Origin: an uncultured Candidatus Saccharibacteria bacterium
GTDB lineage: Bacteria; Patescibacteriota; Minisyncoccia; JBAYJV01
Assembly: GCA_964577395.1 (NCBI GenBank)
Contig: CAZNYQ010000013.1
Span: forward strand, 6,409-70,408
DNA length: 64,000 nucleotides
Direction: 5' to 3'
The notes beneath the pieces are model-generated. The model was given only the letters and a program-made list of their open reading frames with translations, was not told the origin of the DNA and made no database searches. Both the position numbers and the translations under genes were made by a program. Shown here in pieces: positions 28,289 to 55,600 of the stretch. Position 1 is the first letter of the stretch. The number at the start of each line of letters is the position of its first letter.

Positions 28289-28321
28289 AAAAGATTTATG
28301 GATAACATAAATCTTTTTTAT
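28289..28321. terminator. bidirectional hairpin terminator between the tRNA pair (+) and the xer-like recombinase (-)
   Basis: aaaaaagatttat-ggataac-ataaatctttttt. Confidence 0.5.
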
Positions 28322-28329
28322 TAAAAAAA

Positions 28330-29274
28330 TTATTTCTTTTTATGATGATATTGTTCGTGAATTTTTTTTAGATTTTGATCAGTAATGTGAGTATAAATTT
28401 GAGTAGTAGATACATTAGCGTGTCCTAAAAGAGCCTGAACAGAGCGGAGGTCAGCACCTCCCGCTAAAAGATCTGTTGCGAACGAGTGTCTTAATGTATG
28501 TGGAGTAATTTTTTTAGTAATGCCAGCAGCTGTTGACCATTTTCTAACGATTCTTTGGATCGATCTCGGAGTAAGTCGGAGGTTATCGCTACCTCCTATT
28601 TTTTTAATTCTAACGAATAATGCCAAGTCAACATCTTTGCGTTTATTAAGATATGTTTTTAAGGCAGCCTTAGCATTATCTGATAAAAATACTACCCTTA
28701 CTTTTCCGCCCTTGCCTTTAATGCTTAATTCGCAAGTTTCAAAGTTAATTTTCTCTCTATCTAATTTACATAATTCAGATACTCGCAAGCCTGTGCTAAA
28801 AAGCATTTCTAAAATTGCTTTGTCCCTTAAACAGCTTAAATCAGTTTTTTTGCTCTTAAGAGGTGCTTTTAATAATCTTTCGATCTCTTGACTATTAAGT
28901 ATCTCAATTTCTTTCTCTGTTTTTTTAGCAAGTTCAATTTTATCTGGTGATAGACTTTTAATATCTTGTTTAATTAAATAGCGCAGAAAGTTTCTTAGTG
29001 CAATTAAATGATAATTTTGGGTAACACGCTTTAAAGTATTATTATTTAGACGATTAAGATAGAGACGATATTGCCTAATAAGTTCTTGGTCTATTTCTTG
29101 AGGATTTTTAATATTTGCCCAGGTTAAAAAACGTTCTAAATAACGCTTATAATTCTCAAGAGTTTTTTTGCTAGCTCCTTTTTCAATTTCTAAATATTCA
29201 AAATATCTCTGCGCTATATTTCTAATGGGGGGTTTGGTATTTTGTTGATTCATAATAATTTTATTATACGACAT
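28330..29274 (-). CDS. tyrosine site-specific recombinase XerC/XerD-like
   Basis: C-terminal catalytic region HTLRHSFATDLLAGGADLRSVQALLGHANVSTTQIYTHI and an N-terminal SAM-like domain. 314 aa. Confidence 0.85.
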   Translation of the reverse strand: MSYNKIIMNQQNTKPPIRNIAQRYFEYLEIEKGASKKTLENYKRYLERFLTWANIKNPQEIDQELIRQYRLYLNRLNNNTLKRVTQNYHLIALRNFLRYLIKQDIKSLSPDKIELAKKTEKEIEILNSQEIERLLKAPLKSKKTDLSCLRDKAILEMLFSTGLRVSELCKLDREKINFETCELSIKGKGGKVRVVFLSDNAKAALKTYLNKRKDVDLALFVRIKKIGGSDNLRLTPRSIQRIVRKWSTAAGITKKITPHTLRHSFATDLLAGGADLRSVQALLGHANVSTTQIYTHITDQNLKKIHEQYHHKKK

Positions 29275-35804: not shown

Positions 35805-36809
35805 ATGATTATCCAAGATCCTCTTGATAAAGCTATCGTTACTACATTAAATTATGCTGATTTTAAATTATGGCCATTGACTGCCTGGGAAGTTTTTTGT
35901 TATTTAATAAATCCGGCACGTACTAGTAAAGTAAAGCTTACTTGTATTAATTTTTATCAGGTTAAAAAGAGATTAAAAAAATTAGATGAAAAGGGAATTG
36001 TATCTGCCTTTCAAGGCTTTTATGCTCTTCATAATACTTCATCAGTTATTTTATTAAAAAAAAGAGTAACAAGACGTAAACAAAAAGACAAGTTAACTGA
36101 CATGAAAATAAAAAAAGCTAAAAAAAGGACTTATTGGCTGAGATTTTTTCCGTTTATTAGGGGAATTTTTCTAAGCGGTTCTTTGGTTTTTGGATGGGCT
36201 AATCAAAAAAGCGATATTGATCTTCTTATTATTGTTAAAAGAAAACGTCTTTGGACGACTCGTTTTTTATTGAGCATCATCTTAATCTTCTTGGGATTAA
36301 AGCGTTCTCAATATAAGGTTAAAGATCGTTTATGTCTTAATCATTTTATTACCGATGATCATTGCAAGATTCCTCTTTATAGTATTTATAATGGTAATAC
36401 ATATGCTAGAATTGTACCTTTAATTATATATCGTAAAACTTTAGAAATTTTTCTACGAAGCAATCAATGGATCAAAAAATACCTTTTCTTTGGATTTAGC
36501 CATTATTATAGAGACTTGAGAAGTAAGAATTTTTTTTATTATCATATTATTTTACAAAGATTTTTCGAAGCGATTTTTGAATTATTAGGTGGATTTATGG
36601 TAGAAAAATTGCTTAAGATTTTACAAATAAGGAGAATAAAAAAAGATCCCCTAACATATAAGAGGGGAGGGAGGGTTGTGGCTAACAATATGCAAATTGA
36701 ATTCCATCCTGACTCACCAGAACTAAAAACGATTCATTTTTATAATAAGAATTTAGCTAGGCTAAATTTGTTTTCCTTTAAAAGAGAACAAAACTCGGGG
36801 CTCTCTTGA
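35805..36809 (+). CDS. hypothetical protein with Pol-beta-type nucleotidyltransferase motif
   Basis: GSLVFGWANQKSDIDLLII matches the GS-x(9-13)-DxD nucleotidyltransferase signature. Confidence 0.45.
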   Translation: MIIQDPLDKAIVTTLNYADFKLWPLTAWEVFCYLINPARTSKVKLTCINFYQVKKRLKKLDEKGIVSAFQGFYALHNTSSVILLKKRVTRRKQKDKLTDMKIKKAKKRTYWLRFFPFIRGIFLSGSLVFGWANQKSDIDLLIIVKRKRLWTTRFLLSIILIFLGLKRSQYKVKDRLCLNHFITDDHCKIPLYSIYNGNTYARIVPLIIYRKTLEIFLRSNQWIKKYLFFGFSHYYRDLRSKNFFYYHIILQRFFEAIFELLGGFMVEKLLKILQIRRIKKDPLTYKRGGRVVANNMQIEFHPDSPELKTIHFYNKNLARLNLFSFKREQNSGLS

Positions 36810-37946
36810 GGTATTCTTGCGATAAATTTTTTCAACAGCACGAACAATTTTTATCCACGAATATTCATTAGTAACTTTTTGTTTTAGTAAAGTTACTTTT
36901 TTTTGCAGCTTTTTGTGAGGTAGATTTAGGATAGAACTAAGTTGGTGAGATAAGTCATTTAAACTTTTATTTTTAAATGTAAAGGTATTTTTACCAACAA
37001 TTTCAAGATTAGCAGGAATATTACTAACTAAAGTTGGGACTTCATAATTGAGTGCTTCTAGTAAAGCAAAAGATAAACCTTCCGAACTCGAAGGTTGAAC
37101 AAATAGATAGGCATTTCTGAAAAGAAGCTCTAAAGCTCTACCGTTTTGTTGACCGGTGAATATAATATTTTTATCATTTTTAGCAAGTTTTTTTAATTCT
37201 TTTTTATAATTATCGGTAAAAGCACTATCTCCAACAATGACTAATTTCCTTTGTTTTCTAATTGATTGACTTAAGCTTTGGTGAGCTTGGATAAGCAGAT
37301 GAATATTTTTATGTCTTACAAGGCGAGATACTGTAATAATGTATTGTTTGGGTTTTAGATTCCACCAACTAAGACTTTGTTTCTGAGCTTTTGATATATC
37401 AGTGTTTTTGTAAATTTCCACTCCATTTGGAATATAGTTAGCCGAATGATTATAAGTTTCTTTTACATATTTTTTTAATTGTTTTGAAACCACGATTAAA
37501 TCATGAGAAAAGAGAACAGAAAACTTTTCACCAAGTTTTAGAAATTTACGTGCTAACCAGGACCACTTTTGATGATAATAATCCTGACAATGGAATGTAG
37601 AGATAACTTTTATGCTTGGCTTTAAAAGACGAGGAAGCCAAGAAAAAAGAGCGGGACCAATACCATGATAATGAATGATGTCTAAATCCTTAATCAGAAG
37701 ACTGGCATGTAAAGTAGCCACAAAAGTGTGAAAAGCTGTCTCTAAATTTTTACTGTGGATTGTTGGTAAACTGATTAGCTTAACGCCTTTATATTCTTTT
37801 AAATTTTTATTAGTGTAATTAGCTCTTGTATACACAAAGACTTGGTGTTTTTGATTTACTAGGTTTAGAGCCAATGCTTCAACATGACGTTCAATACCGC
37901 CAGTCTTTGTTGGAATTCCTTTTTGTCCGATCATTGCTATTTTCAT
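36762..37946 (-). CDS. glycosyltransferase family 4 (GT-B fold)
   Basis: C-terminal EGLSFALLEALNYEVPTLVSN is the E-x7-E GT4 motif. 394 aa. Confidence 0.8.
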   Translation of the reverse strand: MKIAMIGQKGIPTKTGGIERHVEALALNLVNQKHQVFVYTRANYTNKNLKEYKGVKLISLPTIHSKNLETAFHTFVATLHASLLIKDLDIIHYHGIGPALFSWLPRLLKPSIKVISTFHCQDYYHQKWSWLARKFLKLGEKFSVLFSHDLIVVSKQLKKYVKETYNHSANYIPNGVEIYKNTDISKAQKQSLSWWNLKPKQYIITVSRLVRHKNIHLLIQAHQSLSQSIRKQRKLVIVGDSAFTDNYKKELKKLAKNDKNIIFTGQQNGRALELLFRNAYLFVQPSSSEGLSFALLEALNYEVPTLVSNIPANLEIVGKNTFTFKNKSLNDLSHQLSSILNLPHKKLQKKVTLLKQKVTNEYSWIKIVRAVEKIYRKNTSREPRVLFSFKGKQI

Positions 37947-39187
37947 ATTTTTTGATTGTTTTTAATAGCTTGATTATATATTTTCATTAATCCTTGATAA
38001 TGTTTTTCGGGAGAAAAATCTCTCTCTATCATTAAACGGGCTTCTAGCCCCATATTTCTTAAAAGACAAGGATTGTTATGCAATTGGTTGATTTTCTGTA
38101 TTAATTCTTGACTATTGCCTGATTGAAAGAGCAAACCTGTTTTTCCTGATTTAACCAATTCGGGCAAACCGCCTATCCTTGATGCAATAACTGGTTTTCC
38201 CAAGGCGTAACTTTCTAAGACGGCAAAAGGCGCGTTTTCAAACCATACAGATGGGACAATTACTAAGGCAGCTTTTTTAATAGTTGTTTTCAATTTATCA
38301 CCATATTGCGGCTTAAGCAAATAAACATTATTTAATTGTTGCTTTTGAATTATTGCCGCAAGTTTTTCTCTTTCTTCTCCTGACCCTACTATTTTGAAAT
38401 TGATGTTAGGCAAGGCTTTCGCAGCTTCTAGTAAAATTTTAACATCTTTTTGAGGATGAAGTCTACCAAAGTAGAGAACATATTTACCTGGCTTAATTTG
38501 AGGATCAAATTCTTTTAGATTGATAAAAGGTTTAAGATAAATTATCTTTTCTGGGTTAAAGCCGTTTTCTATATATTTATTTCTTAAAAATTGGGAGGGA
38601 GATATAAAATAGTCAACATTTTTAATATAAATTTTGCTCCATTTTTCAAAATACATCTTACAAACCATTAAAAAGCTAGCCGCAGTTGAATTTTTAATAC
38701 ATTTATGTTTTATGGCTTTCCAATATTTTCCACGAGAACAATCTTCGTGAGATTTTCCCTGAAAAAACATACTATAATTGGGAGATATAAGATGATAGTC
38801 GTGTAAAGTTTGTACGATAGGGACGCCGTGTTTTTTAATAGTTGGCAGGATAGAGGGGGTTAGGTGATGATATATATTATGAATGTGTGCTATATCTGGC
38901 TTTTCGTCTTGGAGCAATTGATTAATTTTTCTTTTTGCTTCCCTAGAATAAATGAATTTTAAAGCTTTTTTCAAAGACTTAAGAGAAAAAGAAATTTTTT
39001 CAAAATCTTGTTTTTTAATAAAATATGAGCTATAAACAGAAGAGAGGGCGTCTTCGTCTTGCATTGAAAAAATTTGAATTTGATGCTGATTCTTTTGAAG
39101 AAGATTTATAAGAGATAACAAATATCTACCTGTTCCACCAGACTTACCTTTATTATGATAAAATTTATTAATCTGAAGAATTTTCAT
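37943..39187 (-). CDS. glycosyltransferase family 4 (GT-B fold)
   Basis: ENAPFAVLESYALGKPVIASRIGGLPELV. Its stop overlaps the downstream GT4 start by 4 nt, indicating translational coupling. Confidence 0.8.
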   Translation of the reverse strand: MKILQINKFYHNKGKSGGTGRYLLSLINLLQKNQHQIQIFSMQDEDALSSVYSSYFIKKQDFEKISFSLKSLKKALKFIYSREAKRKINQLLQDEKPDIAHIHNIYHHLTPSILPTIKKHGVPIVQTLHDYHLISPNYSMFFQGKSHEDCSRGKYWKAIKHKCIKNSTAASFLMVCKMYFEKWSKIYIKNVDYFISPSQFLRNKYIENGFNPEKIIYLKPFINLKEFDPQIKPGKYVLYFGRLHPQKDVKILLEAAKALPNINFKIVGSGEEREKLAAIIQKQQLNNVYLLKPQYGDKLKTTIKKAALVIVPSVWFENAPFAVLESYALGKPVIASRIGGLPELVKSGKTGLLFQSGNSQELIQKINQLHNNPCLLRNMGLEARLMIERDFSPEKHYQGLMKIYNQAIKNNQKI

Positions 39188-39195: not shown

Positions 39196-40533
39196 GTGCC
39201 TAAAAGTCAGTTAAATTTTAAATACTTAAGTTTCTTGGGAGGGTTATTATTAGTTTTTGGACTAATAGTTTTTACTAATTTACCTTTCTTAAAGAGTATA
39301 GTTTTAATAAGCTTTTTTCTTACAACAGTTCTTCTTTTTTTAAAGCCCCTCGGAGGGCTTTTTTTACTTCTTTTTTTAAGGCCTGCTATTGATAGAGTGG
39401 GGACAGGAGAATTTTTAAAAATAGGTAATTTATCTTTAAACTATAATGCTATTTTAGGTCTTATTACTCTTTTCTGGGGGAGTGTTATGATTTTTAAATA
39501 TCGCCATCAATTTCGAAAAATTCCCTCTAAGGTTTGGATTGTCACTTTTCTTGTTATAAGTTTATTAAGTCTTATTTTTGCCCCTGGCTTTCAAATTGGC
39601 CTAGAAGAGCTTGTAAGAATTAGCAGTATTTTCATTCTTTATGCAGTAGCCTTTCTTTTGATAAATTCCAGAAAGCAGTTTAAAAAACTTTTAACTGTTT
39701 TTCTCACTTCTGCTTTCTTGCCAGTATTTTCTGCTTTACGGCAATATCTGACAGATCAAGGAGAAGTAGTCTATGGTGAGTTTTTTAAACGTTTTTTTGG
39801 AACCTTCTTTCATCCCAATAGCTTAGCTTTCTTTTTAGTGTTTTTAATAGCCCTTTTATTATTCTCGGCCAAACAGCAAAGAGAAAAGTCACCAGCGCAA
39901 TTTTTTTATTTAATATTGAGTTTATTAACTTTTCTAGTTTTGCTAGGGACTTATACTCGAGGAGCTTGGTTAGGAGCTTTAATTATTTTTATCGCTTTCA
40001 GTATTTATGGCTTTAAAAGATTTACTCTTGGTTTCGCATTAATTATTTTTTTGTTTTATTTAATAATTCCCACCCTTCAAGAACGTATTAATGATATTAT
40101 AAGACTAGAACCTTTTAGTTCATTAATGTGGCGTTTTCGGCTTTGGCAAGATATGTTACCGCAATTTCTAAGTAATCCTTTGTTTGGTCATGGACTTATG
40201 TCTTTTCGCTATTTATCAGAGAATTTACAAGGCCTACGAACTTTGCCTGCTCCCGAAGCTCATAATGATTATTTAAGGCTAGCTATAGAAGTAGGTATCA
40301 TTGGTATGTTGGGGTACTTACTAATTTATTTAAGATTAGTTATCTTTTATCTCAAGAAATATCTTAAGACCAAAGATAGCTTCTTAAAAGATATTGCTTT
40401 TGTGTCTTTGTTATTGTTATTTACTTTTATGATAATGGCATTAGGAGACAATATCTTAAGAGGCACGGCTACGCAATGGGCATTGTTTAGTTTTCTTGGA
40501 GCTACCACGTCTTTGTTTATAAAACATAAGTAG
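39196..40533 (+). CDS. O-antigen ligase / Wzy_C family polytopic membrane protein
   Basis: About 10 TM helices, YTRGAWLGALIIF, and the periplasmic-loop motif PEAHNDYLRLAIEVGIIG (H-N-x-Y-L ... G-x-x-G). Confidence 0.7.
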   Translation: MPKSQLNFKYLSFLGGLLLVFGLIVFTNLPFLKSIVLISFFLTTVLLFLKPLGGLFLLLFLRPAIDRVGTGEFLKIGNLSLNYNAILGLITLFWGSVMIFKYRHQFRKIPSKVWIVTFLVISLLSLIFAPGFQIGLEELVRISSIFILYAVAFLLINSRKQFKKLLTVFLTSAFLPVFSALRQYLTDQGEVVYGEFFKRFFGTFFHPNSLAFFLVFLIALLLFSAKQQREKSPAQFFYLILSLLTFLVLLGTYTRGAWLGALIIFIAFSIYGFKRFTLGFALIIFLFYLIIPTLQERINDIIRLEPFSSLMWRFRLWQDMLPQFLSNPLFGHGLMSFRYLSENLQGLRTLPAPEAHNDYLRLAIEVGIIGMLGYLLIYLRLVIFYLKKYLKTKDSFLKDIAFVSLLLLFTFMIMALGDNILRGTATQWALFSFLGATTSLFIKHK

Positions 40534-40559
40534 CTTGCTCAAGAGAAAAAGGAAGACAG

Positions 40560-40600
40560 GAAGAGGACAGCTCCTCCTCCTGCCTTTTTATTGTGATCTC
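40560..40600. terminator. bidirectional GC-rich hairpin terminator between convergent genes
   Basis: CAGGAAGAGGA-cagc-TCCTCCTCCTG followed by TTTTT. Confidence 0.55.
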
Positions 40601-41201
40601 AGTCTTTCGACCAAAAATTAACGTAAAATTCACCAGCTCCGTAGCTATCTCCTCTTGCATATTCATCGCATCGCTTTATTTCCGACGGGATGAAGTAGAT
40701 GATCTCGCCATGAGGAGTAATAATAAAGATATTTCCCTCAAGGATGCCTTTGTTCAGCGGAATTCCGTGGATAATGATATATTTATCAACTGTTTCATCA
40801 TCCAGATCCCATTCTGCCCAGTAATGTTCGTTGTGGGGCATCCATTCTGTCTCTTCGATTTCTCGGTCATGGTTTAAATCCCATCCCCATCCTGTAACGT
40901 CTGAACCAAAGTAGATGTTCCAGACACCGAACTGAACGCAGGATTGAGTGATAACATTTTCCCAGACTGTGCAACAACCATTCTCGTCCTTGCCATTCCA
41001 TCCTTGCTTAAGTTCAAGGAAAATGTCAACCGCAGAAGCTCTTCCTTGATCATTCCAAGCTGTTACTTCTATTTTCGTGATAGCACCAAGCCATTCATCG
41101 TCAGTTTGGCAACTAAAGCAATCTTGAGCTTGAGAGAAAGCACTCAAGCTTAAAATGCTAACAACTGACATCACTACCATTAACGTAAAGAACTTTTTCA
41201 T
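40599..41201 (-). CDS. secreted Cys-rich hypothetical protein encoded in a GC-rich (~43-45%) compositional island
   Basis: Signal peptide MKKFFTLMVVMSVVSILSLSAFSQA, 9 Cys, Trp/Asp/Glu-rich. Its codon usage is visibly GC-richer than every neighbour. Confidence 0.5.
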   Translation of the reverse strand: MKKFFTLMVVMSVVSILSLSAFSQAQDCFSCQTDDEWLGAITKIEVTAWNDQGRASAVDIFLELKQGWNGKDENGCCTVWENVITQSCVQFGVWNIYFGSDVTGWGWDLNHDREIEETEWMPHNEHYWAEWDLDDETVDKYIIIHGIPLNKGILEGNIFIITPHGEIIYFIPSEIKRCDEYARGDSYGAGEFYVNFWSKD

Positions 41202-41280
41202 AGTTCTCCTCCTTTTTATTTTGTCTGGCCAATAATTTGACCGCTAAACAAAAGAAATATTCTTTTGCTTAGCGCTCCTA

Positions 41281-42036
41281 TTATTGGAGCGTAGGGAGAT
41301 TTGAAGGAGCGCTTACTTTTTTAATAAAAGGTTGCTCGCTCTTGTAATTTTTCTTGCTAAGATATTTTTTTTGCTTTCCTTTTTTTTGTTTAATTTGAGC
41401 TGTTTCTTTTTCTGCAAAGCTGATTTTTTTATCGGGAAAAGCAACAACTAATCCAATACTTGCTAATAATCCTATAATAAAACCAATGAAAGTATTAAGT
41501 AAAGCATTAGGTTTAACAAATTTTTCACTTACAACAGGATTACCTAAAGAAACGATATCAAGTTGCTCTTCACTACCTAAAAAAGTGGGGTAGTTTTTTT
41601 GAACATTCCGTTTAATTGATTGGCTGATTTCTAAAACTTGTCTTTGATCAGTATGGAAAGCAGATATTTTCAAAATACCAGTATTAGCTAATGTTTCAAC
41701 TTCCACTAATTTACGCCATTTTTTTAATTGGTCTTCTATATTTTCTCCAAAGTATTCATTTTGAATACTTGGATTATAATTAGCTACTTCAGAGAAGAAA
41801 GCAGGCGAAGTGATAATTTGCTTTAAGGTATATGCAAGCTGCTCTGATCCCTTAATAGCAGTATAGGCATCTAAATTAGTGCGTTGTTTTTGAACAATTA
41901 AGAGTTCATTGGTAGCTCTATAATAATGGGGAAGAAAGAAGTTAATATACAACCCGATAGTTCCAGCAATGATTGTTATAATCACAATTGCTTCCCATTT
42001 ATTTTTTAAACTTTTCAAGAAATTTTTATAGTTCAT
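41281..42036 (-). CDS. Wzz-like polysaccharide co-polymerase (chain-length determinant) family protein
   Basis: N-terminal TM (AIVIITIIAGTIGLYINFF), a ~170-aa periplasmic segment, a C-terminal TM (FIGFIIGLLASIGLVVAF) and a basic tail. This is the PCP-1 topology. Confidence 0.6.
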   Translation of the reverse strand: MNYKNFLKSLKNKWEAIVIITIIAGTIGLYINFFLPHYYRATNELLIVQKQRTNLDAYTAIKGSEQLAYTLKQIITSPAFFSEVANYNPSIQNEYFGENIEDQLKKWRKLVEVETLANTGILKISAFHTDQRQVLEISQSIKRNVQKNYPTFLGSEEQLDIVSLGNPVVSEKFVKPNALLNTFIGFIIGLLASIGLVVAFPDKKISFAEKETAQIKQKKGKQKKYLSKKNYKSEQPFIKKVSAPSNLPTLQ

Positions 42037-42177
42037 AAGTTTATTTTTAATTTTCCTTATACTAGCATAAAGTTATTATCTTGTCAAGCTTTTAAGAGGT
42101 AAATTAGTATTAAGGTAAAAATATCTCTTTTCAAATATCTTGACAAGTTTATAAAATGCGTTAAGATGAAATTAGAT

Positions 42178-42204
42178 TTAGCAGACTCAACATGAGAGTG
42201 CTAA
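42178..42204 (+). promoter_or_regulatory. CIRCE-like HrcA operator upstream of groES
   Basis: TTAGCAGACTC-aacatga-GAGTGCTAA versus the consensus TTAGCACTC-N9-GAGTGCTAA. The right half is perfect and the left half has a 2-nt insertion. A TTGACA -35 element lies at 42141-42146. Confidence 0.6.
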
Positions 42205-42232
42205 TTATTTTAATCTGTGTTAAAAAACTTTT

Positions 42233-42523
42233 ATGAATATCAAACCTTTATCAGACCGAGTTTTAATTGAGCCTATTGCCCAAGAAGACAAAACAAAAAC
42301 TGGTATTGTTTTACCAGACACTGCTGAAAAAGAAAGACCGGAGCAGGGTAAAATTGTTGCCGTTGGTCCAGGCAAACTTCTTGAAAATGGTAAAAGACAA
42401 ACCATCGATGTTAAAAAAGGCAATAAAGTAATTTTCTCTAAATTTGGACCCTCTGAAATTAAAATTGATGGTAAGGAATATTTAATTGCTCGAACTGATG
42501 ATATTCTTGCAATTATTGGATAA
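42233..42523 (+). CDS. groES: co-chaperonin GroES
   Basis: IKPLSDRVLIEPIAQEDKTKTGIVLPDTA...GKIVAVGPGK, 96 aa. Confidence 0.9.
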   Translation: MNIKPLSDRVLIEPIAQEDKTKTGIVLPDTAEKERPEQGKIVAVGPGKLLENGKRQTIDVKKGNKVIFSKFGPSEIKIDGKEYLIARTDDILAIIG

Positions 42524-44272: not shown

Positions 44273-47254
44273 TTAAGGGACGTTAATATTTTTAGTGACT
44301 TTTTGGGTAACTGTTGGCCAGTGAAAGTTTAAAATATCAATATTTAGAATGAAACGGCATTTAGCATAAACTGATTTGGATCCGCCACTTGAAAATGTAT
44401 GATTTAAACCGCCTGGCTTTGATGCTGGATAGAGGGACTCTTTCTCTGAGCCATCCTTCCAATCAATTTTATTACTAGTAGGCATATCTAATCTTAATTT
44501 TGTTCCTCGATAAGCGATCGGGCCGATTTTAAAATAAATACCTTTGATAATTGGTTCTCCTAAAATACTGATATATATATTAGGAACACTACAGATGCCT
44601 ATAGAAGCAGGTTTAATATTCTCATCATATATCTTTACAGTATGAGGGGATGAATCTACGGCTTGAGCGTTAAGATTTCCCACACTACAATCTTCCCAAT
44701 TATTGCCATTTAATAAAGTACATACAGCTGATACGAGATCGGTAGGACAAGCAAAATTACCGCTTATATCAACCTCAATAACCAACTTCTTAATAATATT
44801 CATTAAATCAAGATGAATAATATCTTGAGCTAGATGCTGGTTTACGACAATTTTAAAGAAACGATGCAATATATCGTAGCGAATACCTGTTAATTTTTCT
44901 CCTTTCTTAGCTGCGAATTCAATAATTAGTTCTTCAACCCTATCTAAAGCATAGCTTTGTAATTCCTCAAAAGAAATATTTTTGGTTTCACTTAAAAATC
45001 TTGCAAAACTAGCTATTTCTGCTACTAATTCCGGATCTATACCTAAAGTTTCTTGTATGTAGGGAGCTAAAACATCTTGAACAATTCTTGTTATTATTTG
45101 TTTTCCACGAGAGATCAGGTAGGATTCAAAAGAGCTAATAAACTGATTTACATCAAACTCTAGAAAGATATTTAGGTCTTTGCCTTGCGCATTAATAGTA
45201 TAGTTGATGAAGTCTAGAACATATTTTGCTAATTCTGGACTGATTTTAAAATTTTCCTCTAAAACAGTTGTGATTTTAACGCTTAGAAAGTCAACCGCTT
45301 CTTCGATGAATTGTTGGCTATCAACATCTATGTCAATTCCTGCCTCGTCGAGCAGAATACTAATGCCATGACTTTCAATCTCAATAGATAGGTCTGATAT
45401 GTCGTAACCTTTGTCAAAAAGAAGAAATTTAATAAACTGAATTGTTTTTTCGATAATTCTGCTGTCAACTGCTTTTTGCACGAGCTCGCCGTCTATTTCT
45501 ACATCTATTTCTATGATGTCTAATAATTTATTAGCTGTTTGAGCTGCAAGGTCATAAGCGACGCTCCTTATAATGTCAAGGCCTTTTTGAAGAGTAATCC
45601 CGTGAGCTTGAACGTAGCTTTTCCAAAGTTCTTCTAGGCTAGATTTATTTTTTTGAATAATTTCTTGCAAACTTAGTCCTTTATTCTGGATCAAGAATTT
45701 TATAAAATTCTTGATATCATTTATTTGTTGATCATTTAAATTATATTCATCCTTAAGCTTTTGTATCTCTGTGGCAGCAAGAGAAGTCAGGGCTTCAATA
45801 ATTTGCTGTTGACTCGCTTCGCTCTCAAGATTTAATCCAGCTGATATTAAGTTTATTAATTTTTGAGCTTTTAGGATTTTTTTAATTAAAGGCGAGGAAT
45901 GTTGCTTGACATAACCATTCCACAATAGGTCAAACCATGCTTCTACATCAGAAGAGTCAGGGAGAGAGCCTCTTTCTATGCCTTGTTCGGCAAGAAAAGC
46001 AATAAAATTACCAATTTCTTGAGCTGTCCCTGTCTCAATATTAAGTTCAATTGCAAATTTTATAATAAATTCTTTAATAACTTGGGGAGCGACTTCTTTA
46101 ATTCCGTTAATGCCTGCGTTAACAAATTTATCAATGTTATCAGTAAAAAATTCGGGATCATTAATAGCTTGAATTGGATCTATTCCTTGAGATTGAAGCC
46201 AAAAATAAAAGTCAGCTAGAGCTTGCATATTTTTAGCTATATCTTCTCCAAAAAGGCCCACTATGACTTCACCGGTAAATTCTTCTGCAAAACCAGCGAG
46301 AAGATTACTTAACATTGAAGCAGTAATATTACACAAATCCCAACGTAAAGCATCTTTTTGTTCTTCACTCTCTGGAGCTTTTTTCCATCCTTCTTTTTCA
46401 GTACAAATATATTGAGGATCTGTAGGGTTATAATCACTTGGAGCTATATCTTCATGTACATTACCGCATTGCCATTCATAGTAGCCAGCATTATTTTTCT
46501 GACAGGTGGCTTCATCATAATAGCGACAATAAATTCCTTCTTCTTTTTCAATGACACGGGCTTCATCGCATGTATCTGAAGGCGCTCCTTGAGATAAGTA
46601 ACAATTAAAAGAGCTATCAACGTTTATTAAATCTTCTAAAAGATTATCAAAACTAATAATTGGTTCTGTGATATGGCAATCACTCTCAACTTTTACCCAA
46701 TAACCCTTAAAAGCTTCAAGATTTGCCCTAGGAGAAGTGAGATGATAATCATTACCAGAAGCTTCAAATAACCAATCAATTTTTAAATTACAGTTTCCCT
46801 TCAATTGTGCCCAGTTATAATTAGCGGTAGAGGCTATTAAATTCCATCCCGCTTCCAATTCTGTACTAAAGCCTCCTTCAGGAGGCATCTCTGCTTCACC
46901 CGAAGACCCAACCTCTAATTCACAATCATTAATTACCCTTACCCAGTAAGCTTTTAATGGTTTTAGAGCATCTCCGGCTTTACGATATTTATATAAATTA
47001 GGACTCCATTCCCAAGGACCTGAATCAATTTCACAGCCAGCTAGATATTCTGAACTTAATATTTCATCAGATACAGAGATGAGATTCCATCCCTTTTTAA
47101 GAGATACATTGCCCTGAGGAGCAAGCTCCATTTCTATTCCAGCTTGAGCTTTCTTAGGACTTAAAAAAGATCCTAAATAGACAAAACCAGTTTGCGTTAA
47201 AGTAAATGTTATAAGGACTATTGTAATTATTGTTTTTTTAAAAAACTTCTTCAT
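44273..47254 (-). CDS. very large (993 aa) signal-anchored surface protein with internal repeats, function unknown
   Basis: Signal/TM MKKFFKKTIITIVLITFTLT...AQA. Two tandem ~65-aa N-terminal repeats (GWNLIS...LKPLKAYWVRVINDCE / GWNLIA...LEAFKGYWVKVESDCH). The helical middle region carries recurring F-x-x-FL-x-x-KG-x-x-(F/L)-(E/Q)-E-(L/I) units. Confidence 0.6.
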   Translation of the reverse strand: MKKFFKKTIITIVLITFTLTQTGFVYLGSFLSPKKAQAGIEMELAPQGNVSLKKGWNLISVSDEILSSEYLAGCEIDSGPWEWSPNLYKYRKAGDALKPLKAYWVRVINDCELEVGSSGEAEMPPEGGFSTELEAGWNLIASTANYNWAQLKGNCNLKIDWLFEASGNDYHLTSPRANLEAFKGYWVKVESDCHITEPIISFDNLLEDLINVDSSFNCYLSQGAPSDTCDEARVIEKEEGIYCRYYDEATCQKNNAGYYEWQCGNVHEDIAPSDYNPTDPQYICTEKEGWKKAPESEEQKDALRWDLCNITASMLSNLLAGFAEEFTGEVIVGLFGEDIAKNMQALADFYFWLQSQGIDPIQAINDPEFFTDNIDKFVNAGINGIKEVAPQVIKEFIIKFAIELNIETGTAQEIGNFIAFLAEQGIERGSLPDSSDVEAWFDLLWNGYVKQHSSPLIKKILKAQKLINLISAGLNLESEASQQQIIEALTSLAATEIQKLKDEYNLNDQQINDIKNFIKFLIQNKGLSLQEIIQKNKSSLEELWKSYVQAHGITLQKGLDIIRSVAYDLAAQTANKLLDIIEIDVEIDGELVQKAVDSRIIEKTIQFIKFLLFDKGYDISDLSIEIESHGISILLDEAGIDIDVDSQQFIEEAVDFLSVKITTVLEENFKISPELAKYVLDFINYTINAQGKDLNIFLEFDVNQFISSFESYLISRGKQIITRIVQDVLAPYIQETLGIDPELVAEIASFARFLSETKNISFEELQSYALDRVEELIIEFAAKKGEKLTGIRYDILHRFFKIVVNQHLAQDIIHLDLMNIIKKLVIEVDISGNFACPTDLVSAVCTLLNGNNWEDCSVGNLNAQAVDSSPHTVKIYDENIKPASIGICSVPNIYISILGEPIIKGIYFKIGPIAYRGTKLRLDMPTSNKIDWKDGSEKESLYPASKPGGLNHTFSSGGSKSVYAKCRFILNIDILNFHWPTVTQKVTKNINVP

Positions 47255-49081: not shown

Positions 49082-49786
49082 ATGTCTCGTGTTAAAAAAT
49101 ATATTTTGGGTTTATTGATTCTTGTCATTATTTTTGTAATTTCAGTTGTTGTTTTTGTAGAAAGAGATCAAGAAGGTAAGCTTAAATTTTCTCTTACAGG
49201 CAGCCAAACTAATATTATTTCAGATAATTTTAATGAGGTTATTCAACAAGAACTTACCCTAGATGATATAAATTGGTCTGATGCATATAATAAAGTGCTT
49301 AAACAGAAATATTCTAAAGATAACTTAAATCAAAAAGAGATTGAAATTTCTAGCGGTGCCTCTAAAATTTCTGAAGAAGAAGCTGAGATGGATGAAGATA
49401 ATAAAGAAATAATTTTTCAAAAGTTCGTTAATTATTTAAATAATTCAGAGACAAAACTTGATGAAAATAAGAATCCCTTTCAATTAGCTTTAAATTACCG
49501 AGACGAGGGAAGACCAGAGAAAATTGATGGTTTAATATCTTTTTATGATTCAAAGGTCACTAGTCTTGAGAAAGTAACGCCTCCAGAAGAAGTTTTAGGA
49601 TATCACTTGGTCAAATTAAGACTTTTAAGAGAAATTAAGCTTGCAGTCAGTAAAATTAAAACTTCTTCTCAGGAAATGCCCCTTAAAGAAGTTTTATCCG
49701 AAGAGGAGATTAATTATTTGGCGAGACTTGATTTAATTTTAAAACAATATTTAGTATATTTTTTCCATGACAGAACAAAGGCTTAA
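49082..49786 (+). CDS. hypothetical N-terminally anchored protein
   Basis: Start lies 2 nt after the upstream stop. One N-terminal TM helix and no recognisable motif. Confidence 0.4.
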   Translation: MSRVKKYILGLLILVIIFVISVVVFVERDQEGKLKFSLTGSQTNIISDNFNEVIQQELTLDDINWSDAYNKVLKQKYSKDNLNQKEIEISSGASKISEEEAEMDEDNKEIIFQKFVNYLNNSETKLDENKNPFQLALNYRDEGRPEKIDGLISFYDSKVTSLEKVTPPEEVLGYHLVKLRLLREIKLAVSKIKTSSQEMPLKEVLSEEEINYLARLDLILKQYLVYFFHDRTKA

Positions 49787-52571
49787 AAGAAAACAAAATA
49801 TATTAAGATTAATCTTGGGATTAGTTATTATTTCTACCTTTTTGGTGGGCAGTTTTGTAAGAAGTGTTATAGCGGTAAATATCACGGGCAGTACTGTTGT
49901 TAATGAGCATTTTGATAGTAGTATTCCTGGGTATGATATTTGTAAGGAGTTGAGGCATTTAACGGAACCACAAGAAGATCCAACCTTAAGTCCTCCTCGT
50001 GAAGTTTTTAAGTATACAGTAAGCTCATCAGAAGATGATAGCGGAGGGGTCATAGGTGGAGGTGATACAGATTCAGTTGTAACGCAAGAAGGCAGCATTT
50101 TTCAAAAATGGTTTCTTGATGCATGTGTAATGGATGGATATCTTACAGAAGTAAGACATGTTGCCACAATTCATAATTTTGATGTAAGAAACTCTGATAT
50201 TTTTCAAAGCCAAATGGGGAATAATGAAGGCACTCTCGGAGAGTTGTTTGAAATAGCTCTTATGGAGGTTACTAAAAATAAAACATGGATGACAGAAGGT
50301 GCTGGTAGTTTGAGGAATTTAAGTCTTAAAGATTTTCTATTAGAACTTACACACGAGGAAACAATGCAGGTTGAAAAAGATAAAGAATGGATGGAAGAGG
50401 ATATCAGTAGCTTAGAAAAATCAAGTATGAAAGATTTTCTATTAGAGCTTACTCATGAGAGTACAATGGAGGCAACAGAAGGATATGATGATGACAAAAA
50501 CGAAGAATTAACCAAGGCTAGCATTAAAGATTTTCTTTTATATGTTAAGGATTCGAACGAACAGTTTATGACAGATCTTATGCAAGCTTTATCAGAGAAA
50601 GAAAAACTTCATATAAGATCCTTAAAAGAATACGAATTGGCTAAGATAGAAAAGGCAAGAGAAGATGTTAATAAATTAACTTATGAAGTTTACAATGAGC
50701 TCAAGGAAGAGCCTCTTGTTTATAATAATAATGGAGTAACAGGTGACATAGTACGCTCTCTAGGACTGAGGGTAGTGGAAGAAGAAAGCAGTAGTTGTCC
50801 TTTTGGGGTAATAATAAAGAATAGCTCTGGAGAAGAAGAATGTGTAATTATCAAAAGAGAAGGAAGGGTAATTCAGAATGTAGATGATTATATCTATGAA
50901 GAAGCTATTCAAAAAGCCCGTGATTTTGTTATGTGTTTCTTGGCTCCTTGGAGACATTTTCCTATAGGAGAAGATTATTATTTTGCTGCATCTTTTGAAG
51001 AATTTAAGAGTGTGCAAGATCATAATGATAAACTTAGGGACGGGACGTCGCCAGATTATATATGGACGGGAGATCCTGTTTGTGGAGAAGAAGCCACAGC
51101 CGAGATTAGGAATAATGCTTGTAATACGGAATGCGGAGATGACTCAACAAGAATAGATAAATGGAAATCAAGTAATTATGGAGAAATTAATGATTGTCGC
51201 GAATGCATTCGCGAAGAGTTGGATAACAAATGCGATACAGAATATATTTGCGAAAAAGCACGGGAAGAAGCAGGAGATCGCCCCGATATGTTTAGTGATG
51301 ATTTTGAGGATTATCTTAAGAAGCTTTGTCCTAGCGATCAGATAAAAGAACAGATTAAAAGAGATTTATTATTTGATATGGCTCGCAAATACAAATTTTT
51401 ATATAATGCACCTCCAGAAAATTGGTACTATAATTCTGGAGCTTCTGGTAACGCCAATGATAAAACCAAATGTGCTCTCATATTAGCCAATTTAGGCTAT
51501 GATGTTGATGGTATTGTAGAAGAAGAAATTGGTAATCCTCTTAGGAGCAATATGATTAAAAAATATGCAGAATATCAAGAAGATGTCTGGAGAACGGAAT
51601 TGCCCATTTCAGTTGCCTACCGTCCAGATGTGAGTAATAAAGATTATAACAAGCAAAACGCCGCTTTGACCTCTAGTACTGGAGAAGGAGTGAAGTCTTT
51701 TGCTCAAAATCTTGTAGATGAGATTATTAGCGATTATGAAAGTCTTCGTACCGCTGAATATATAGCAGGCGAAGGTATTAGGTCGGAAAAATATTTAATA
51801 GGTTTTCCTGCTTATGATGATGTAGGTGACGCATTAGGGGTATACTTTATAGATACTGAAAATATTATCTCACCGGCAATTTTCTTAAAAGACAAAATTG
51901 CAGCAGCTACTCAAGCGCAATTTGACCTAGCTCAAAATGCTTGGAAACAAAAGCCTGAAGGGATTGGCGTCGGAGAGCTAGGTTGTCCCGACCCCCACAT
52001 TGGCGAGATGGATAAATCAGACTTTAGCGATAAAAAACCATATACTGCCCTAGAGAATAAATGTACGAACGAAGAATTGGAACATGGTTGGTATTTAGTT
52101 GAAATTTCAGATCCCGGCACTCCTGAAGATGAGAAAGAATATGAATGTCGCTGGCCACAGTATAACGACATTACATGTGAGGTTTTTGGCTATATTACTA
52201 CAGAAGCTATCACCGATGAATTACCTAAGGAATTACCAGCACCTTGGGAAGATATTAATGAATATATGGAGGTGCCGGAGGAATATGTAACTTGGTTTGA
52301 AGGTGATGTCAATGGTGTATCAGGAGAGCAATTGGGGCTTAAAAAAGCACCTCCAGCATTTGATATTCCTGAATATGGCACGCAATACCCTGATTTAACA
52401 GCTGACGATATTTATCCAAATATTTATCAAGAAGCTTATGGAAAAGATCAATCCCTTTCAATGCCTAATAGTGATAAATATTATATTAATAAATGGTATA
52501 AGAATATCACCCAGCTTTACGAAAAGCCGATGTCTGAAATTCTAAGAACTTGGTTTAAAGAGAACCCTTAA
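49767..52571 (+). CDS. large (934 aa) N-terminally anchored extracytoplasmic protein with 3x tandem ~37-aa repeat and a Cys-rich segment
   Basis: Overlaps the upstream ORF by 20 nt. Contains the (S/M)(L/M)KDFLLELTHE(E/S)TM repeat three times and a Cys-rich block CGEEATAEIRNNACNTECGDD...CRECIREELDNKCDTEYIC. Confidence 0.5.
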   Translation: MTEQRLKRKQNILRLILGLVIISTFLVGSFVRSVIAVNITGSTVVNEHFDSSIPGYDICKELRHLTEPQEDPTLSPPREVFKYTVSSSEDDSGGVIGGGDTDSVVTQEGSIFQKWFLDACVMDGYLTEVRHVATIHNFDVRNSDIFQSQMGNNEGTLGELFEIALMEVTKNKTWMTEGAGSLRNLSLKDFLLELTHEETMQVEKDKEWMEEDISSLEKSSMKDFLLELTHESTMEATEGYDDDKNEELTKASIKDFLLYVKDSNEQFMTDLMQALSEKEKLHIRSLKEYELAKIEKAREDVNKLTYEVYNELKEEPLVYNNNGVTGDIVRSLGLRVVEEESSSCPFGVIIKNSSGEEECVIIKREGRVIQNVDDYIYEEAIQKARDFVMCFLAPWRHFPIGEDYYFAASFEEFKSVQDHNDKLRDGTSPDYIWTGDPVCGEEATAEIRNNACNTECGDDSTRIDKWKSSNYGEINDCRECIREELDNKCDTEYICEKAREEAGDRPDMFSDDFEDYLKKLCPSDQIKEQIKRDLLFDMARKYKFLYNAPPENWYYNSGASGNANDKTKCALILANLGYDVDGIVEEEIGNPLRSNMIKKYAEYQEDVWRTELPISVAYRPDVSNKDYNKQNAALTSSTGEGVKSFAQNLVDEIISDYESLRTAEYIAGEGIRSEKYLIGFPAYDDVGDALGVYFIDTENIISPAIFLKDKIAAATQAQFDLAQNAWKQKPEGIGVGELGCPDPHIGEMDKSDFSDKKPYTALENKCTNEELEHGWYLVEISDPGTPEDEKEYECRWPQYNDITCEVFGYITTEAITDELPKELPAPWEDINEYMEVPEEYVTWFEGDVNGVSGEQLGLKKAPPAFDIPEYGTQYPDLTADDIYPNIYQEAYGKDQSLSMPNSDKYYINKWYKNITQLYEKPMSEILRTWFKENP
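50317..50560 (+). repeat. in-frame tandem repeat (3 copies, ~111 nt unit) inside the 49767-52571 ORF
   Basis: Nucleotide-level copies aaagattttctattagaacttacacacgaggaaacaatg, aaagattttctattagagcttactcatgagagtacaatg, and aaagattttcttttatatgttaaggattcg (degenerate). Confidence 0.5.
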
Positions 52572-52623
52572 TTTATTTTTAAAATATTGTTACCGAGAAA
52601 TTTTACAATACCTCATATTTTTA

Positions 52624-55600
52624 ATGTTTTTAAAATTAAAAAAATTTAAGTTTAATAAACAATGGTTGCCTTTCATTGCTTTAATATTGTCCTTTATATT
52701 TTTAATTTTTCCTAGAGGAGCTGCTCATGCAGGAGCAGGGGGATGGTTTGCTAGTCTTTTTTTAAGTCTATTAGGATTAATCCTGTATGTGCTAGCGGTG
52801 GCTTCTACTTTTATTCTTGGTATTGGTAGTAAGCTGTTGTCTTTTGTTATGACAACAACCTTTAATGAAGATCTTTTTATTGAAGCGCCTTTTGTTAAAG
52901 TAGCTTGGTCATTTACACGAGATTTCGCCAATTTATTTTTTATTCTTTGGCTTGTCATTATTGCCTTAGCTACAATTGTAGATGTAAAAGGTTATAGCGC
53001 TAAAAAATTATTGGTAAAACTTATTGTAGTAGCTTTATTAGTAAATTTCAGTTTAGTTTTGTGCTGTTTCATGCTAGATATTGCTCAAGGTGCGATGGGG
53101 TTCTTAACGCAATCAGTAATTGTAATTAAAGGAGAACCATTTTCACTGGCTGATGGACTATCTTATTCCTTTCGCCAGTCAGAACTTTTTGGTGCTCATC
53201 TGCCGTCAGGATCAAGCTTCTTTTTAGGAAATTTAGATTCCAGCATATCTACTGTAATGCATAATTTATTAGTGCTTGCTTTTTCTCTTATAGCAGCTTA
53301 TGTTTTTTTAATTTTATCAATTATGCTATTAGTTAGAGTTGTGGCGTTGTGGTTATTACTTATATTTGCTCCCTTAGCATGGACTTTCGGTATCATGCCT
53401 TTTGCTAAAAAAGCCTGGACAGAATGGATTAGTAAATTTTTTCAATGGGCATTCTACGGAGTAATAGTAGCTTTTTTAATGTATCTAGCTGCTATGGCAG
53501 TTTGGGCAATCCAAGAAGCTGAAGGATGGAGCGATAATTTAAATCAAGGAAGCGAGATGATGGGTAGTTTTGGTACGCAGGTTTCTTTTATAGAAAATTT
53601 TACCAGCATTTTAAGTTTTATAGTTGTAATTGTTCTTTTGCTAATGGCAAAAGGTGTTGGTATGTCAGCTGCTAAAAGCGGAGGAGATATGGTTACGAAT
53701 ATGGTGGCAGGTTATGTAGGAGGAAAAGCAGCCACTTGGGGGAAGAAACCAGTTCGCTATGCTAAAGATAAAGCACGAGATGTTAAGACAAGAACCAAAG
53801 GTGCTGTTGGTCGGAGCGTAATGCATGGGGGTGATATTCCGATTATAGGAAAAACAGTTAGAAGAGCAGGCACAAAATGGGCACTAGAAGATAAGCAGGA
53901 TAGATCACAGAAAGTGGGGAGATTTAGCGATTATTCTCAATTAAGCGATCAAGAACTTAAAGATATTAGCTCGAATATGGTAGGGCAAAAAGCTCAACAA
54001 GAAGAAATTGCTCAAGTTGCAAAATTAATGACTGATAGAAATCTTGTATATAATATAAGCGATGAAAAAGAGCTTAAGACGCTTCTTGATTCCCTGAAAA
54101 AGTTTGGAAATGATAGTGATGTTAAGAAATTTGAAGAAAAAAGACCAGATGCTATTCAAGCCAAAGGTCTTACGGTTCATGATATTATCGAAAGGCAACG
54201 CACGGGCCAGCCACTAGGAAGCGTTACGCTTCAAGAGGCTCGTCAATTACAAGAAAGAAGGCAAGAAGCTATTCAAAGAGCAATTAAAAATAACGAAGCT
54301 CAAAATTGGACGGAAGACTTTATCAGGAATAGTCTCTCTTCTGATCTTGTTGATGTTTTTGCGCAAGATAAAAATGGCGTAAAAATGATTAGTAAAGCAG
54401 CCGAAGATTGGGGCAGTGGAGTCAAAGAGTCTTTCTTAGAAAAAGTGATGGCGAATTTCTCAGATGATTTTGACGGAAATGATGCGGAAAGGAATTTAGC
54501 TGCTCGTAATTTTTATGGAAAATTAGGAGGGAATTATTATAAAGCTTATCATAGCGACGAGAAGGGCCGAATTGTTACTGATCCTAATTTTGTCAATAAC
54601 AATGTAAGGCAGACAGAGCTATTAGAAGCAATAGCAAAAATTAGCAGTACGAAAGATTGGGAAAAATTAGATGATAGTGACGAAAATCTTAAGCTTATCG
54701 CTCGACACATACAAAGTTCTCAAATCAACAATGCTGGACGTAATTTAGATAGCTATACTAAAGCTAAAATATATGATGAATTAAGGAAACAACGTCATGA
54801 TTCTTCTCTTGACCCAAGCGAACAAAAAGATCGCACAGAAGTTTATAAAACAATGACGTACAACGATACTTGGCCCGGCTCAATTACTGGAGATAGACTT
54901 GAGAAATTAAGAAAGCGCAAAGAAGAACGAGATAAGGAAAAGAAAGAAATGGATAAAATGCACGGAGAAGCTCTGCAAATGAACAAAGAATATGACAAGG
55001 AGCAACAAGAAAAACAACAAAAAGAAAGGGAAGAAATGAATAAGCTGCATGGAGAGGCAATAGAAGAAGACAGGTTGCGCGGAAAAGAGAAGGAAGCAAA
55101 AACAATAGAAGAAAGAGACAAAAAACAAAGAGAAGAAAAAGAAAAGGAGCGCCTAGAATTAGAAAAACAACGATTAGAGATGGAAAAGGAAAGACTTGAA
55201 ATGGAAAAGAAGAGATACAACAAAAAAGATAATGAGAAGGACAACGATGATGGTGATAACAATGGAGGGTTTTCTCAAAAAAAACCAACTCCTCCTCCTA
55301 GCACAGATTCAGGAGGAACGCAACGAACTCAATCGTCTGACAACAAACAGGATTATAATATTCGCGCTGATAGTGTTAATATTCAACCAAAAAGCACTCT
55401 TGACAACGGAAACACAAAAAATGTTAATTTAAATCAAAAAAATATCTCAATTAGCGAAGGAGAAAATGCTCCAAACCAAACAGTTGACCTAAGAGGAGAA
55501 AAAAAATCTCGCATAATAACACCAGAACCTCGTGGACATATTAAATTTTCCGAAGGTTCTGGGTGGACACCTCAACAGAAAAAAGATTTTGAAGAAAAGA

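Follow-up and report, generated by a model that had tools for sequence, protein, structure and literature searches.

Introduction

Surface-polysaccharide cassettes, such as those for O-antigen and capsule, carry deeply diverged alleles in near-identical genomic backgrounds, meet their conserved flanks at sharp breakpoints and are atypical in composition; owing to their foreign origin, O-antigen cassettes of the classical kind have a lower AT content than the genome that carries them. Here we describe a locus that shares these traits in a 64-kb stretch of DNA (hereafter the window) from contig CAZNYQ010000013.1 of an uncultured Candidatus Saccharibacteria bacterium. Its centre is a minus-strand open reading frame (ORF) at 40599–41201 that encodes a predicted secreted protein, and we refer to this ORF and to its homologs at the same locus position as the slot gene. 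The slot gene lies in a Wzz/Wzy_C/GT4 setting like that of the described cassettes, but the variable unit here is a single, apparently non-enzymatic secreted protein (sometimes together with Wzz) rather than glycosyltransferases or a polymerase, and unlike classical O-antigen cassettes the slot gene is GC-richer, with an anomaly that is clade-wide and persistent.

In recombining bacterial genes the GC content at third codon positions (GC3) is raised, mainly through non-optimal codons, an effect treated as GC-biased gene conversion (gBGC; Lassalle et al. 2015, PMC4450053). The slot gene likewise recombines and has a GC3 that is raised through non-optimal codons too, but its excess of +0.12 to +0.35 and its restriction to a single ORF exceed that genome-wide statistical effect. 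By analogy only, the slot gene also recalls fungal mating-type idiomorphs and the balanced surface-antigen polymorphisms of bacteria, where barely alignable alternatives sit at one locus between homologous flanks, independently of the genome tree; unlike idiomorphs, the slot-gene types remain distant homologs, and they are not known to act in compatibility. Overall, our analysis makes it reasonably probable that the slot gene is a resident, lineage-restricted and strain-variable surface protein cassette in a glycan locus, with a GC content that is probably tied to recurrent recombination.

Third-position composition of the slot gene

The overall GC content of the window was 0.326. GC3 of the slot gene was 0.413 in comparison to a mean of 0.229 over the 51 ORFs of at least 100 aa, with a runner-up of 0.280; the other 50 ORFs ranged from 0.18 to 0.28, and without the slot gene their mean was ~0.225 with a standard deviation of ~0.024. 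The initial annotation of this stretch, made from the sequence alone, had described the gene as GC-richer (~43–45%) than all of its neighbours and had suggested that GC and GC3 be followed in sliding windows. This analysis bore out the third-position part of the description, the gene being an outlier by about 8 standard deviations, while in total GC the island was the top 600-nt window by a narrow margin (0.433 versus at most 0.417), the whole gene had a value of 0.416, and it was in 300-nt windows that a maximum of 0.45 was reached. The remaining raw-GC peaks of the window were tRNA genes or conserved proteins with high GC at first and second codon positions (GC1 and GC2), and the uniqueness of the island is a third-position signal rather than one of total GC.

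When codons were redrawn 5000 times from background usage with the protein held fixed, GC3 was 0.261 ± 0.027 with a maximum of 0.372, below the observed value, which ruled out amino-acid composition as the source of the excess. In the window copy this excess was concentrated in the TGC, TAC, ATC, TTC, AAC, GAC and CAC codons (Cys, Tyr, Ile, Phe, Asn, Asp and His), and the C-ending fraction for Phe, Tyr, Ile and Asn was 0.56 in comparison to 0.176 ± 0.066 in other genes. GC at four-fold sites was just 0.25 in this copy, the clear rise being confined to C-ending two-fold and Ile codons. The GC-rich tract coincided with the ORF, and the leader upstream of it and the flanks were AT-rich. Two antisense ORFs on the plus strand (40593–40877 and 40944–41153) were judged to be by-products of GC-richness because they were not kept as ORFs in orthologs, where their size and position differed, and because synonymous sites were unconstrained, with saturated synonymous differences (pS).

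A resident gene position in one Paceibacterota clade

The initial annotation had also called for a homology search with the 200-aa protein, and this search returned members of one clade only, together with 33-column motif matches to PKD repeats. Six homologs with 64–94% identity were found among 5.8 billion clusters, and a profile that included divergent forms raised this to 13 homologs in the same set, the family as a whole comprising about 15 clusters. An exhaustive hidden Markov model search of 1.84 billion representatives gave two full-length representatives and a local motif match to PKD-repeat proteins. The related loci (given here as L001, L006 and so on) came from metagenome-assembled genomes labelled Candidatus Paceibacterota or uncultured 'Saccharibacteria', both of the candidate phyla radiation (CPR). 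No homolog outside the clade was detected among ~15 billion proteins or in IMG/VR, where 2.9 million viral contigs gave zero slot-gene matches, and neither type of the slot gene had a match in Pfam (0 families at E <= 1), NCBIfam, PHROGs or the PDB by phmmer and profile search.

All family members with readable context shared one position, following groEL-groES and Wzz and convergent with WzyC, beyond which lay two GT4 genes and then a Pol-beta-type nucleotidyltransferase. A homolog was present at the slot in all lineages of the Paceibacterota clade, at least 11 in number, and when genomes were searched by WzyC instead of the slot gene, the slot was occupied in 3 of 3 species-level genomes and likewise in L029. 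Relatives whose WzyC was ~33% identical had another locus organisation and no slot-gene homolog; the small genes beside WzyC in two outgroups (173 aa in L030 and 221 aa in L031) were rejected as homologs with E values of at least 0.3. As a separate observation, in the unrelated outgroup L031 (GC ~52%) the interval between WzyC and a Wzz-like gene held three unannotated genes (7518–10889) for secreted or lipoprotein-like products. GC3 of these three genes was ~0.80 versus 0.47–0.60 in the flanking glycan genes, a parallel contrast in genes that are not homologous to the slot gene.

No part of the slot gene was repeated elsewhere in the window, which also lacked flanking direct repeats or island borders around the gene, and the nearest integrase and tRNAs lay 12 kb away, the immediate neighbours being Wzz and WzyC. 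Among the features by which genomic islands are judged, atypical composition was found, while patchy presence, mobility hallmarks and donor-lineage homologs were all absent. A phage or mobile origin was rejected on the lack of IMG/VR matches and of an integrase or repeats at the borders. The gene was likewise rejected as the target of a diversity-generating retroelement, as there was no template repeat of the gene within 30–52 kb and no reverse transcriptase among the annotated neighbours.

The slot gene had the highest GC3 of its locus in each lineage (0.413 in the window copy, 0.526 in L001, 0.482 in L006, 0.551 in L010, 0.433 in L013, 0.502 in L014, 0.488 in L015, 0.651 in L016, 0.469 in L018, 0.502 in L020, 0.561 in L025 and 0.451 in L029). 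Neighbour genes ranged from 0.22 to 0.36 and rarely up to 0.43, giving the slot gene its excess of +0.12 to +0.35. The initial annotation had suggested horizontal acquisition and had itself named universal orthologs of the same composition as evidence to the contrary; the gene proved universal in the clade, with the same GC3 excess.

Synonymous divergence was high at the locus, with a slot-gene pS of 0.78–0.84 between the window copy and other lineages and synonymous distance (dS) estimates of 1.5–3 for the neighbours. According to our own two-state calculation, in which GC3 tends to an equilibrium of ~0.25, a lineage that has undergone one synonymous substitution per site keeps ~7% of an initial excess. 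As synonymous sites are saturated, a foreign composition would not have been passively retained, and a gene-specific GC-ward force is therefore likely to be ongoing. These values show that GC-richness belongs to the gene itself, in all lineages and with both types, and it is unlikely to be a fading foreign signature.

In pooled orthologs the shift extended beyond C-ending codons. The fraction of C-ending two-fold codons was 0.49 in the slot gene versus 0.27 in neighbours (ATC:ATT 63:38 versus 214:823), that of G-ending two-fold codons 0.40 versus 0.24, and four-fold GC 0.43 versus 0.29. GC1 and GC2 of the slot gene were raised too, and its use of Phe, Tyr, Met, Ile, Asn and Lys was at or under the minimum of the neighbours. 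Genome-wide translational selection was rejected because ribosomal proteins, S1, trigger factor and GroEL/ES were unshifted. GC3 was 0.18–0.24 in L19, S15, S1, trigger factor and GroEL, and GroEL/ES had a C-ending fraction of 0.22; for Phe, Tyr, Ile and Asn the C-fraction was 0.16–0.29 in L19, GroES and GroEL in comparison to 0.56 in the slot gene of the window.

Allele exchange between near-identical genomes

The slot gene occurred as two types, short (~195 aa) and long (~245 aa), that were 22% identical and dispersed across the genome tree; subtypes occurred as well. Short and long types remain distantly homologous, with hmmsearch E values of 3e-19 to 5e-62 for L029.

The locus in L001 was compared with those in L006 and L008 from the same sample series, to which it was ~100% identical in DNA over groEL, groES, WzyC, the two GT4 genes and the gene for the nucleotidyltransferase. 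Identity fell to 60–76% in one segment of ~1.5 kb with sharp limits (~8975–10465 in L001), which took in Wzz with the region upstream of it and some four fifths of the slot gene. This segment was a mosaic, with an internal patch of 98% identity and a right breakpoint inside the slot gene. A second pair, L014 and L025, had GroEL proteins that were 99% identical and colinear flanking DNA at 84–89%, and at the slot a 244-aa long type (L014, 11396–12130) faced a 194-aa short type (L025, 6001–6585) with 26% identity. DNA homology in this pair ended 10 nt before the start codon and returned 3 nt after the stop, an exchange that was precise to the ORF.

Identity of the slot gene was uncorrelated with that of GroEL across ten lineages (rho 0.16, p 0.31). 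Between the window copy and L001, the slot gene was 71% identical while Wzz and WzyC were both 50% and GroEL 77–78%; between L013 and L001 the slot gene was 51% identical, Wzz 81%, WzyC 77% and GroEL 92%. Homologous recombination in conserved flanks, and sometimes within the gene, has replaced deeply diverged alleles between near-identical genomes, and the history of the slot gene is therefore decoupled from that of the genome. Selection on the protein was purifying, with a ratio of non-synonymous to synonymous substitution (dN/dS) of 0.11–0.16 between orthologs. This pattern of exchange suggests that the product is exposed at the surface and diversifying, for instance as an adhesin, as a phage receptor or in the recognition of hosts. 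A divergence hotspot was looked for in the closest strain pair, the window copy and L028, and was not seen.

One further contig of 1276 bp (L032, JGI, encoding P0016) began with 535 nt for a signal peptide and a Peptidase_S74 (tail-fibre chaperone) domain, joined in frame to a long-type body that was 98.4% identical to that of L018; this may be a real fusion or an assembly chimera.

The predicted exported product

The slot-gene product begins with a signal of the Sec type, with small residues at positions -3 and -1 as for signal peptidase (SPase) I, and is predicted to be exported. The MKK...AQ-(D/E)C pattern was common to all short-type orthologs, and a model from AlphaFold2 (AF2) placed a helix at residues 2–25. 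There was no lipobox ([LVI][ASTVI][GAS]C), the first Cys following Q-D or Q-E, and the product does not have the appearance of a SPase II lipoprotein. The signal peptide reported in the initial annotation is supported by the n-h-c pattern of the sequence and by its retention in orthologs, and the stated richness in Trp, Asp and Glu holds (11, 16 and 17 residues), but the count of nine Cys has to be corrected to six and the suggestion of an effector or toxin-like protein found no support. The six Cys are kept in the short type, consistent with stabilisation by disulfides, and the mature part of ~175 residues is acidic and Trp-rich.

The sole likeness to a described domain was found in residues 88–122. 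Aligned by hhalign with the PKD repeats of P0008 and P0009 (12 repeats), the short type, and only this type, matched with a probability of 93.9% over 33 columns that comprise a strand and a loop, in keeping with the W-D-x-G-D-G-type loop that comes after the B strand in PKD domains. The alignment ended at PKD column 50, and no Pfam PKD hit was obtained at E <= 1, the gathering score not being reached. The comparison is with the PKD domain (PF00801/PF18911) in the WDFNNDGxIDSTxQNP calcium-loop subtype of archaeal-type surface proteins, which shares with the slot-gene product the 33-column strand and loop and a predicted beta-rich, extracellular character. It differs in that the C-terminal half of the domain is unaligned, in that a mature protein of ~175 aa is set against a repeat of ~85 aa, and in that the motif is missing in the long type. 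By sequence, the PKD likeness is a resemblance and not family membership.

This segment contains a putative loop of the EF-hand/dockerin kind, in which, as in DxDxDG loops, positions 1, 3, 5 and 12 carry acidic or amide ligands and position 8 is hydrophobic. D108, N110, D112, I115 and E119 were invariant in 7 short-type sequences, and the equivalent loop of the PKD-repeat proteins matches Pfam Dockerin_1. Unlike EF-hand and dockerin loops, this one has an invariant Arg (R113) in place of Gly at position 6, is single rather than paired and is lost in the long type. The short type may thus bind Ca2+ through an EF-hand-like loop within the PKD-like segment, as predicted from sequence.

A second AF2 model was marginal (pLDDT 57, pTM 0.58) and suggested, at that level, a beta-rich product. 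Fold searches with this model gave no significant structural neighbour; the best Foldseek matches were Ig-like, with E values of at least 0.19 and TM scores of at most 0.34. Few polar residues were invariant across both types, H145 being replaced by Arg in most long-type members, and a binding or structural role therefore appears preferable to an enzymatic one.

Leader, terminator and transcription of the locus

The features of the locus are collected in Table 1. The conserved glycan locus is completed by two GT4 genes, and the position of the gene between an O-antigen ligase-type and a Wzz-like gene, as first annotated, was supported by both Pfam matches. The Wzz-like protein also matched TIGR01006, the CpsC family, with an E value of 1e-11 that was below the cutoff for that model.

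Table 1. Features of the slot-gene locus in the window (positions of the 64-kb stretch).
Feature	Position	Strand	Evidence and remarks
Two GT4 glycosyltransferases	36762–39187	-	Ortholog Pfam annotation and tblastn synteny
Wzy_C-family membrane protein (O-antigen ligase/polymerase/O-OTase type; WzyC)	39196–40533	+	Pfam Wzy_C E = 6e-23; convergent neighbour, syntenic in all loci
GC-rich bidirectional intrinsic terminator	40553–40586	both	15-bp stem, 4-nt loop, A-run and T-run flanks; between WzyC and slot gene
Slot gene, secreted-protein ORF, short type	40599–41201	-	200 aa, ATG start, GC 0.416, GC3 0.413
PKD-like segment, residues 88–122	40836–40940	-	VQF..GSDVTGWGWD.N.D..I..(S/T)E
Putative EF-hand/dockerin-like Ca2+ loop	40845–40880	-	D108-x-N110-x-D112-x-x-I115-x-x-x-E119
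Signal peptide, residues 1–25	41127–41201	-	MKK / FFTLMVVMSVVSILSLSAF / S-Q-A, then Q-D-C; read from sequence
Ribosome-binding site GGAGGAG	41206–41212	-	Ahead of slot-gene ATG; with an A-rich stretch, conserved in every lineage
Structured leader	41227–41274	-	P1 hairpin 41242–41274 (covarying); P2 hairpin/palindrome GGUCAA-AUUA-UUGGCC 41227–41242
Wzz/CpsC-like polysaccharide co-polymerase	41281–42036	-	Pfam Wzz E = 2.4e-7; upstream of slot gene, adjacent in every locus
Best sigma-70-like promoter, putative	42059–42087	-	TTGACA-17-TAGTAT with TG; consensus scan, 10/12 matches; upstream of Wzz

The GC-rich bidirectional terminator of the initial annotation was confirmed, with a folding energy of -27.2 kcal/mol on the minus strand (z = -2.1), and it can serve both convergent genes because an A-run and a T-run flank its stem. 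Wzz and the slot gene are probably transcribed as one unit from the predicted promoter upstream of Wzz.

In every lineage and with both gene types, the interval from the stop codon of Wzz to the start of the slot gene held a structured leader (12 lineages aligned). Its P1 element was a hairpin of 10–15 bp and its P2 element was almost invariant, with the consensus GGUCAA-N4-UUGRCC; RNAalifold on the leader alignment gave 16 pairs, and compensatory changes supported 5 of these. The leader was kept where the ORF is swapped between L014 and L025, and between the window copy and L028, the closest strain, it was 98.7% identical while the flanking ORFs were 90–94%. A scan of 40400–42300 gave no relevant Rfam covariance-model match at E <= 1. 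The leader was present as a single copy per locus in 25 loci and occurred once in the 64-kb window, which ruled out a role as the operator of a regulon. We consider it a candidate new cis-regulatory RNA or operator; as an RNA element it would most obviously help to process or stabilise the mRNA that follows it. In L020 the called start of P0013 (MIDH...) falls inside P2 of the leader (2070–2099), and translation probably begins further downstream, at MKRIV.

What maintains the slot gene and its composition

In the reading that we prefer, the slot gene would hold a fixed position in a cell-envelope glycan locus (groEL-groES/Wzz-slot gene, convergent with WzyC-GT4-GT4) of one Paceibacterota clade, and its exported product would act at the cell surface along with the polysaccharide made by the neighbour genes. 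Recombination through the conserved flanks would swap diverged alleles among near-identical genomes, while a gene-specific GC-ward force, perhaps GC-biased repair or conversion at the cassette, would keep the ORF GC-rich. The transcript would start upstream of Wzz, pass through the two-hairpin leader and end at the bidirectional hairpin. GC-biased repair or conversion tied to recurrent recombination is favoured as the force because direct evidence was obtained for recombination and for no other process; we hold this part tentatively, at somewhat under even chances, and prefer it to selection on the mRNA.

Several observations weigh against this reading, most of them against its gBGC part. Wzz lies inside one of the swapped segments, yet its GC3 is near-normal, and the GC-rich tract is bounded by the ORF, a feature equally expected under transcript-level selection. 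In the window copy the restriction of the shift to C-ending codons, with four-fold GC at 0.25, resembles codon selection, and in comparison to L028 there was no excess divergence at the slot gene. Additionally, the effects of gBGC published for bacteria are far below +0.12 to +0.35. As to the product, the structural model is marginal, the fold searches gave no significant match, and its function is read from gene context only.

Selection on the transcript or its translation is the strongest rival, although we still regard it as unlikely. The ORF would here be kept GC-rich either for resistance to AU-directed endonucleases such as RNase Y (11468–12988) or for C-ending codons read by GNN tRNAs. 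In both versions the secreted protein would be made in large amounts in comparison to the membrane protein Wzz of the same operon, and the leader hairpins would serve as a processing or stabilising site. This would agree with the match between the GC-rich tract and the ORF amid AT-rich leader and flanks, with the C-ending bias of the window copy, and with the conserved structured leader and strong terminator on either side. However, ribosomal proteins, S1, trigger factor and GroEL/ES have no such bias, and most orthologs are also shifted at G-ending and four-fold codons, at GC1 and GC2 and in amino-acid usage, none of which is predicted by codon-level selection.

A more specific proposal is that the slot gene is a host- or phage-facing specificity determinant of these episymbiotic bacteria, with idiomorph-like alleles that are kept by frequency-dependent selection and pass between species by recombination, and that this recombination is persistent enough for gBGC to have built the single-gene GC3 island in an AT-rich genome; we regard this combination as doubtful.

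Alternatively, the product could be a polysaccharide-acting enzyme, a lyase, a hydrolase or a modifier that sets chain length with Wzz, rather than a binding or adhesive determinant. Its place between a chain-length determinant and a Wzy_C protein and the conserved His, Asp and Glu of the short type are in keeping with such an activity, but few polar residues are invariant across types, no enzyme family was matched by sequence or profile, and the exchange of whole alleles that are 22% identical is commoner in exposed proteins with a binding or antigenic role, which renders an enzyme improbable.

Continual re-import of alleles from an unsampled GC-richer reservoir, be it phage, plasmid or the organism that hosts these episymbionts, would refresh the composition but appears very improbable. 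Allele replacement clearly occurs, archaeal-type surface proteins, through their PKD repeats, are the sole outside sequences with similarity, and the short contig L032 links a long-type body to a tail-fibre chaperone domain. Against this, every family member with known context sits in the chromosomal slot and there were no viral matches; the segment swapped between L001 and L006 carried an ordinary AT-rich Wzz too, which makes its donor a relative of normal composition; and the PKD match covers just 33 columns, while the S74 junction lies on a 1.3-kb contig that is possibly chimeric. Finally, an island acquired from a GC-richer donor, whether recently or anciently and without amelioration, can account for a composition that is atypical at all three codon positions and for an orphan protein with no relatives among the neighbour genes, but it is hardly credible given that all lineages of the clade have the gene in this slot with this anomaly, and given the lack of homologs outside the clade (~15 billion proteins, IMG/VR) and of an integrase, tRNA or repeat boundaries, and saturated synonymous sites at which passive retention of such an excess is not credible.

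Other features of the window

The window is ordinary core chromosome, with genes for RNase Y, ClpP, trigger factor, H+-pyrophosphatase, NusA, L19, S15, S1, FtsH, PNPase, DksA, GroES/GroEL and KsgA, and with a type-IV-secretion-like cluster further on. Adjoining groEL is a signal-peptide protein of 993 aa without a Pfam domain (44273–47254, minus strand) that was syntenic in all related loci (978–1008 aa) and is a second clade-specific surface candidate. The type-IV-secretion-like cluster (56981–61203, plus strand) encodes PrgI-like and TraC-like proteins, a VirB4/TraG P-loop ATPase and a type IV secretion pilin, and upstream of it, at 49767–56085, are two very large unannotated proteins of 934 and 1153 aa. 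Tandem repeats of ~102 nt were found at 50262–50547.

At 28107–29274 a tyrosine recombinase with a XerC/D-like integrase fold directly adjoins tRNA-Arg(TCT) and tRNA-Lys(CTT), and a tRNA-Ile with anticodon TAT (23786–23859, minus strand) lies within a tRNA cluster. At the window edge a protein with helix-turn-helix and Fic/DOC domains is encoded (29–958, minus strand). The region 4447–8331 (plus strand) holds a B12-dependent ribonucleotide reductase followed by a corrinoid adenosyltransferase, DUF4430 and DUF6580, possibly a compact set of genes for handling cobalamin in a reduced genome.

Significance

The slot gene cautions against inferring horizontal acquisition from no more than an outlying composition and an orphan secreted product. 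It provides a natural case for the open question of what keeps local GC content off mutational equilibrium in bacteria, as a single resident gene appears to hold its own synonymous equilibrium across saturated divergence, with foreign origin and genome-wide translational selection both disfavoured. If the reading as a specificity determinant shaped by gBGC were true, the locus would represent an unusually strong and localised bacterial gBGC footprint together with a previously undescribed leader RNA.

Members of the CPR, or Patescibacteria, are mostly uncultured, and the molecules by which they attach to hosts or are exposed to phages are largely unknown. The slot gene is a concrete candidate for such a role in attachment or phage exposure, being clade-restricted, predicted to be secreted, placed in a glycan locus, marked by allele exchange and preceded by a conserved leader.

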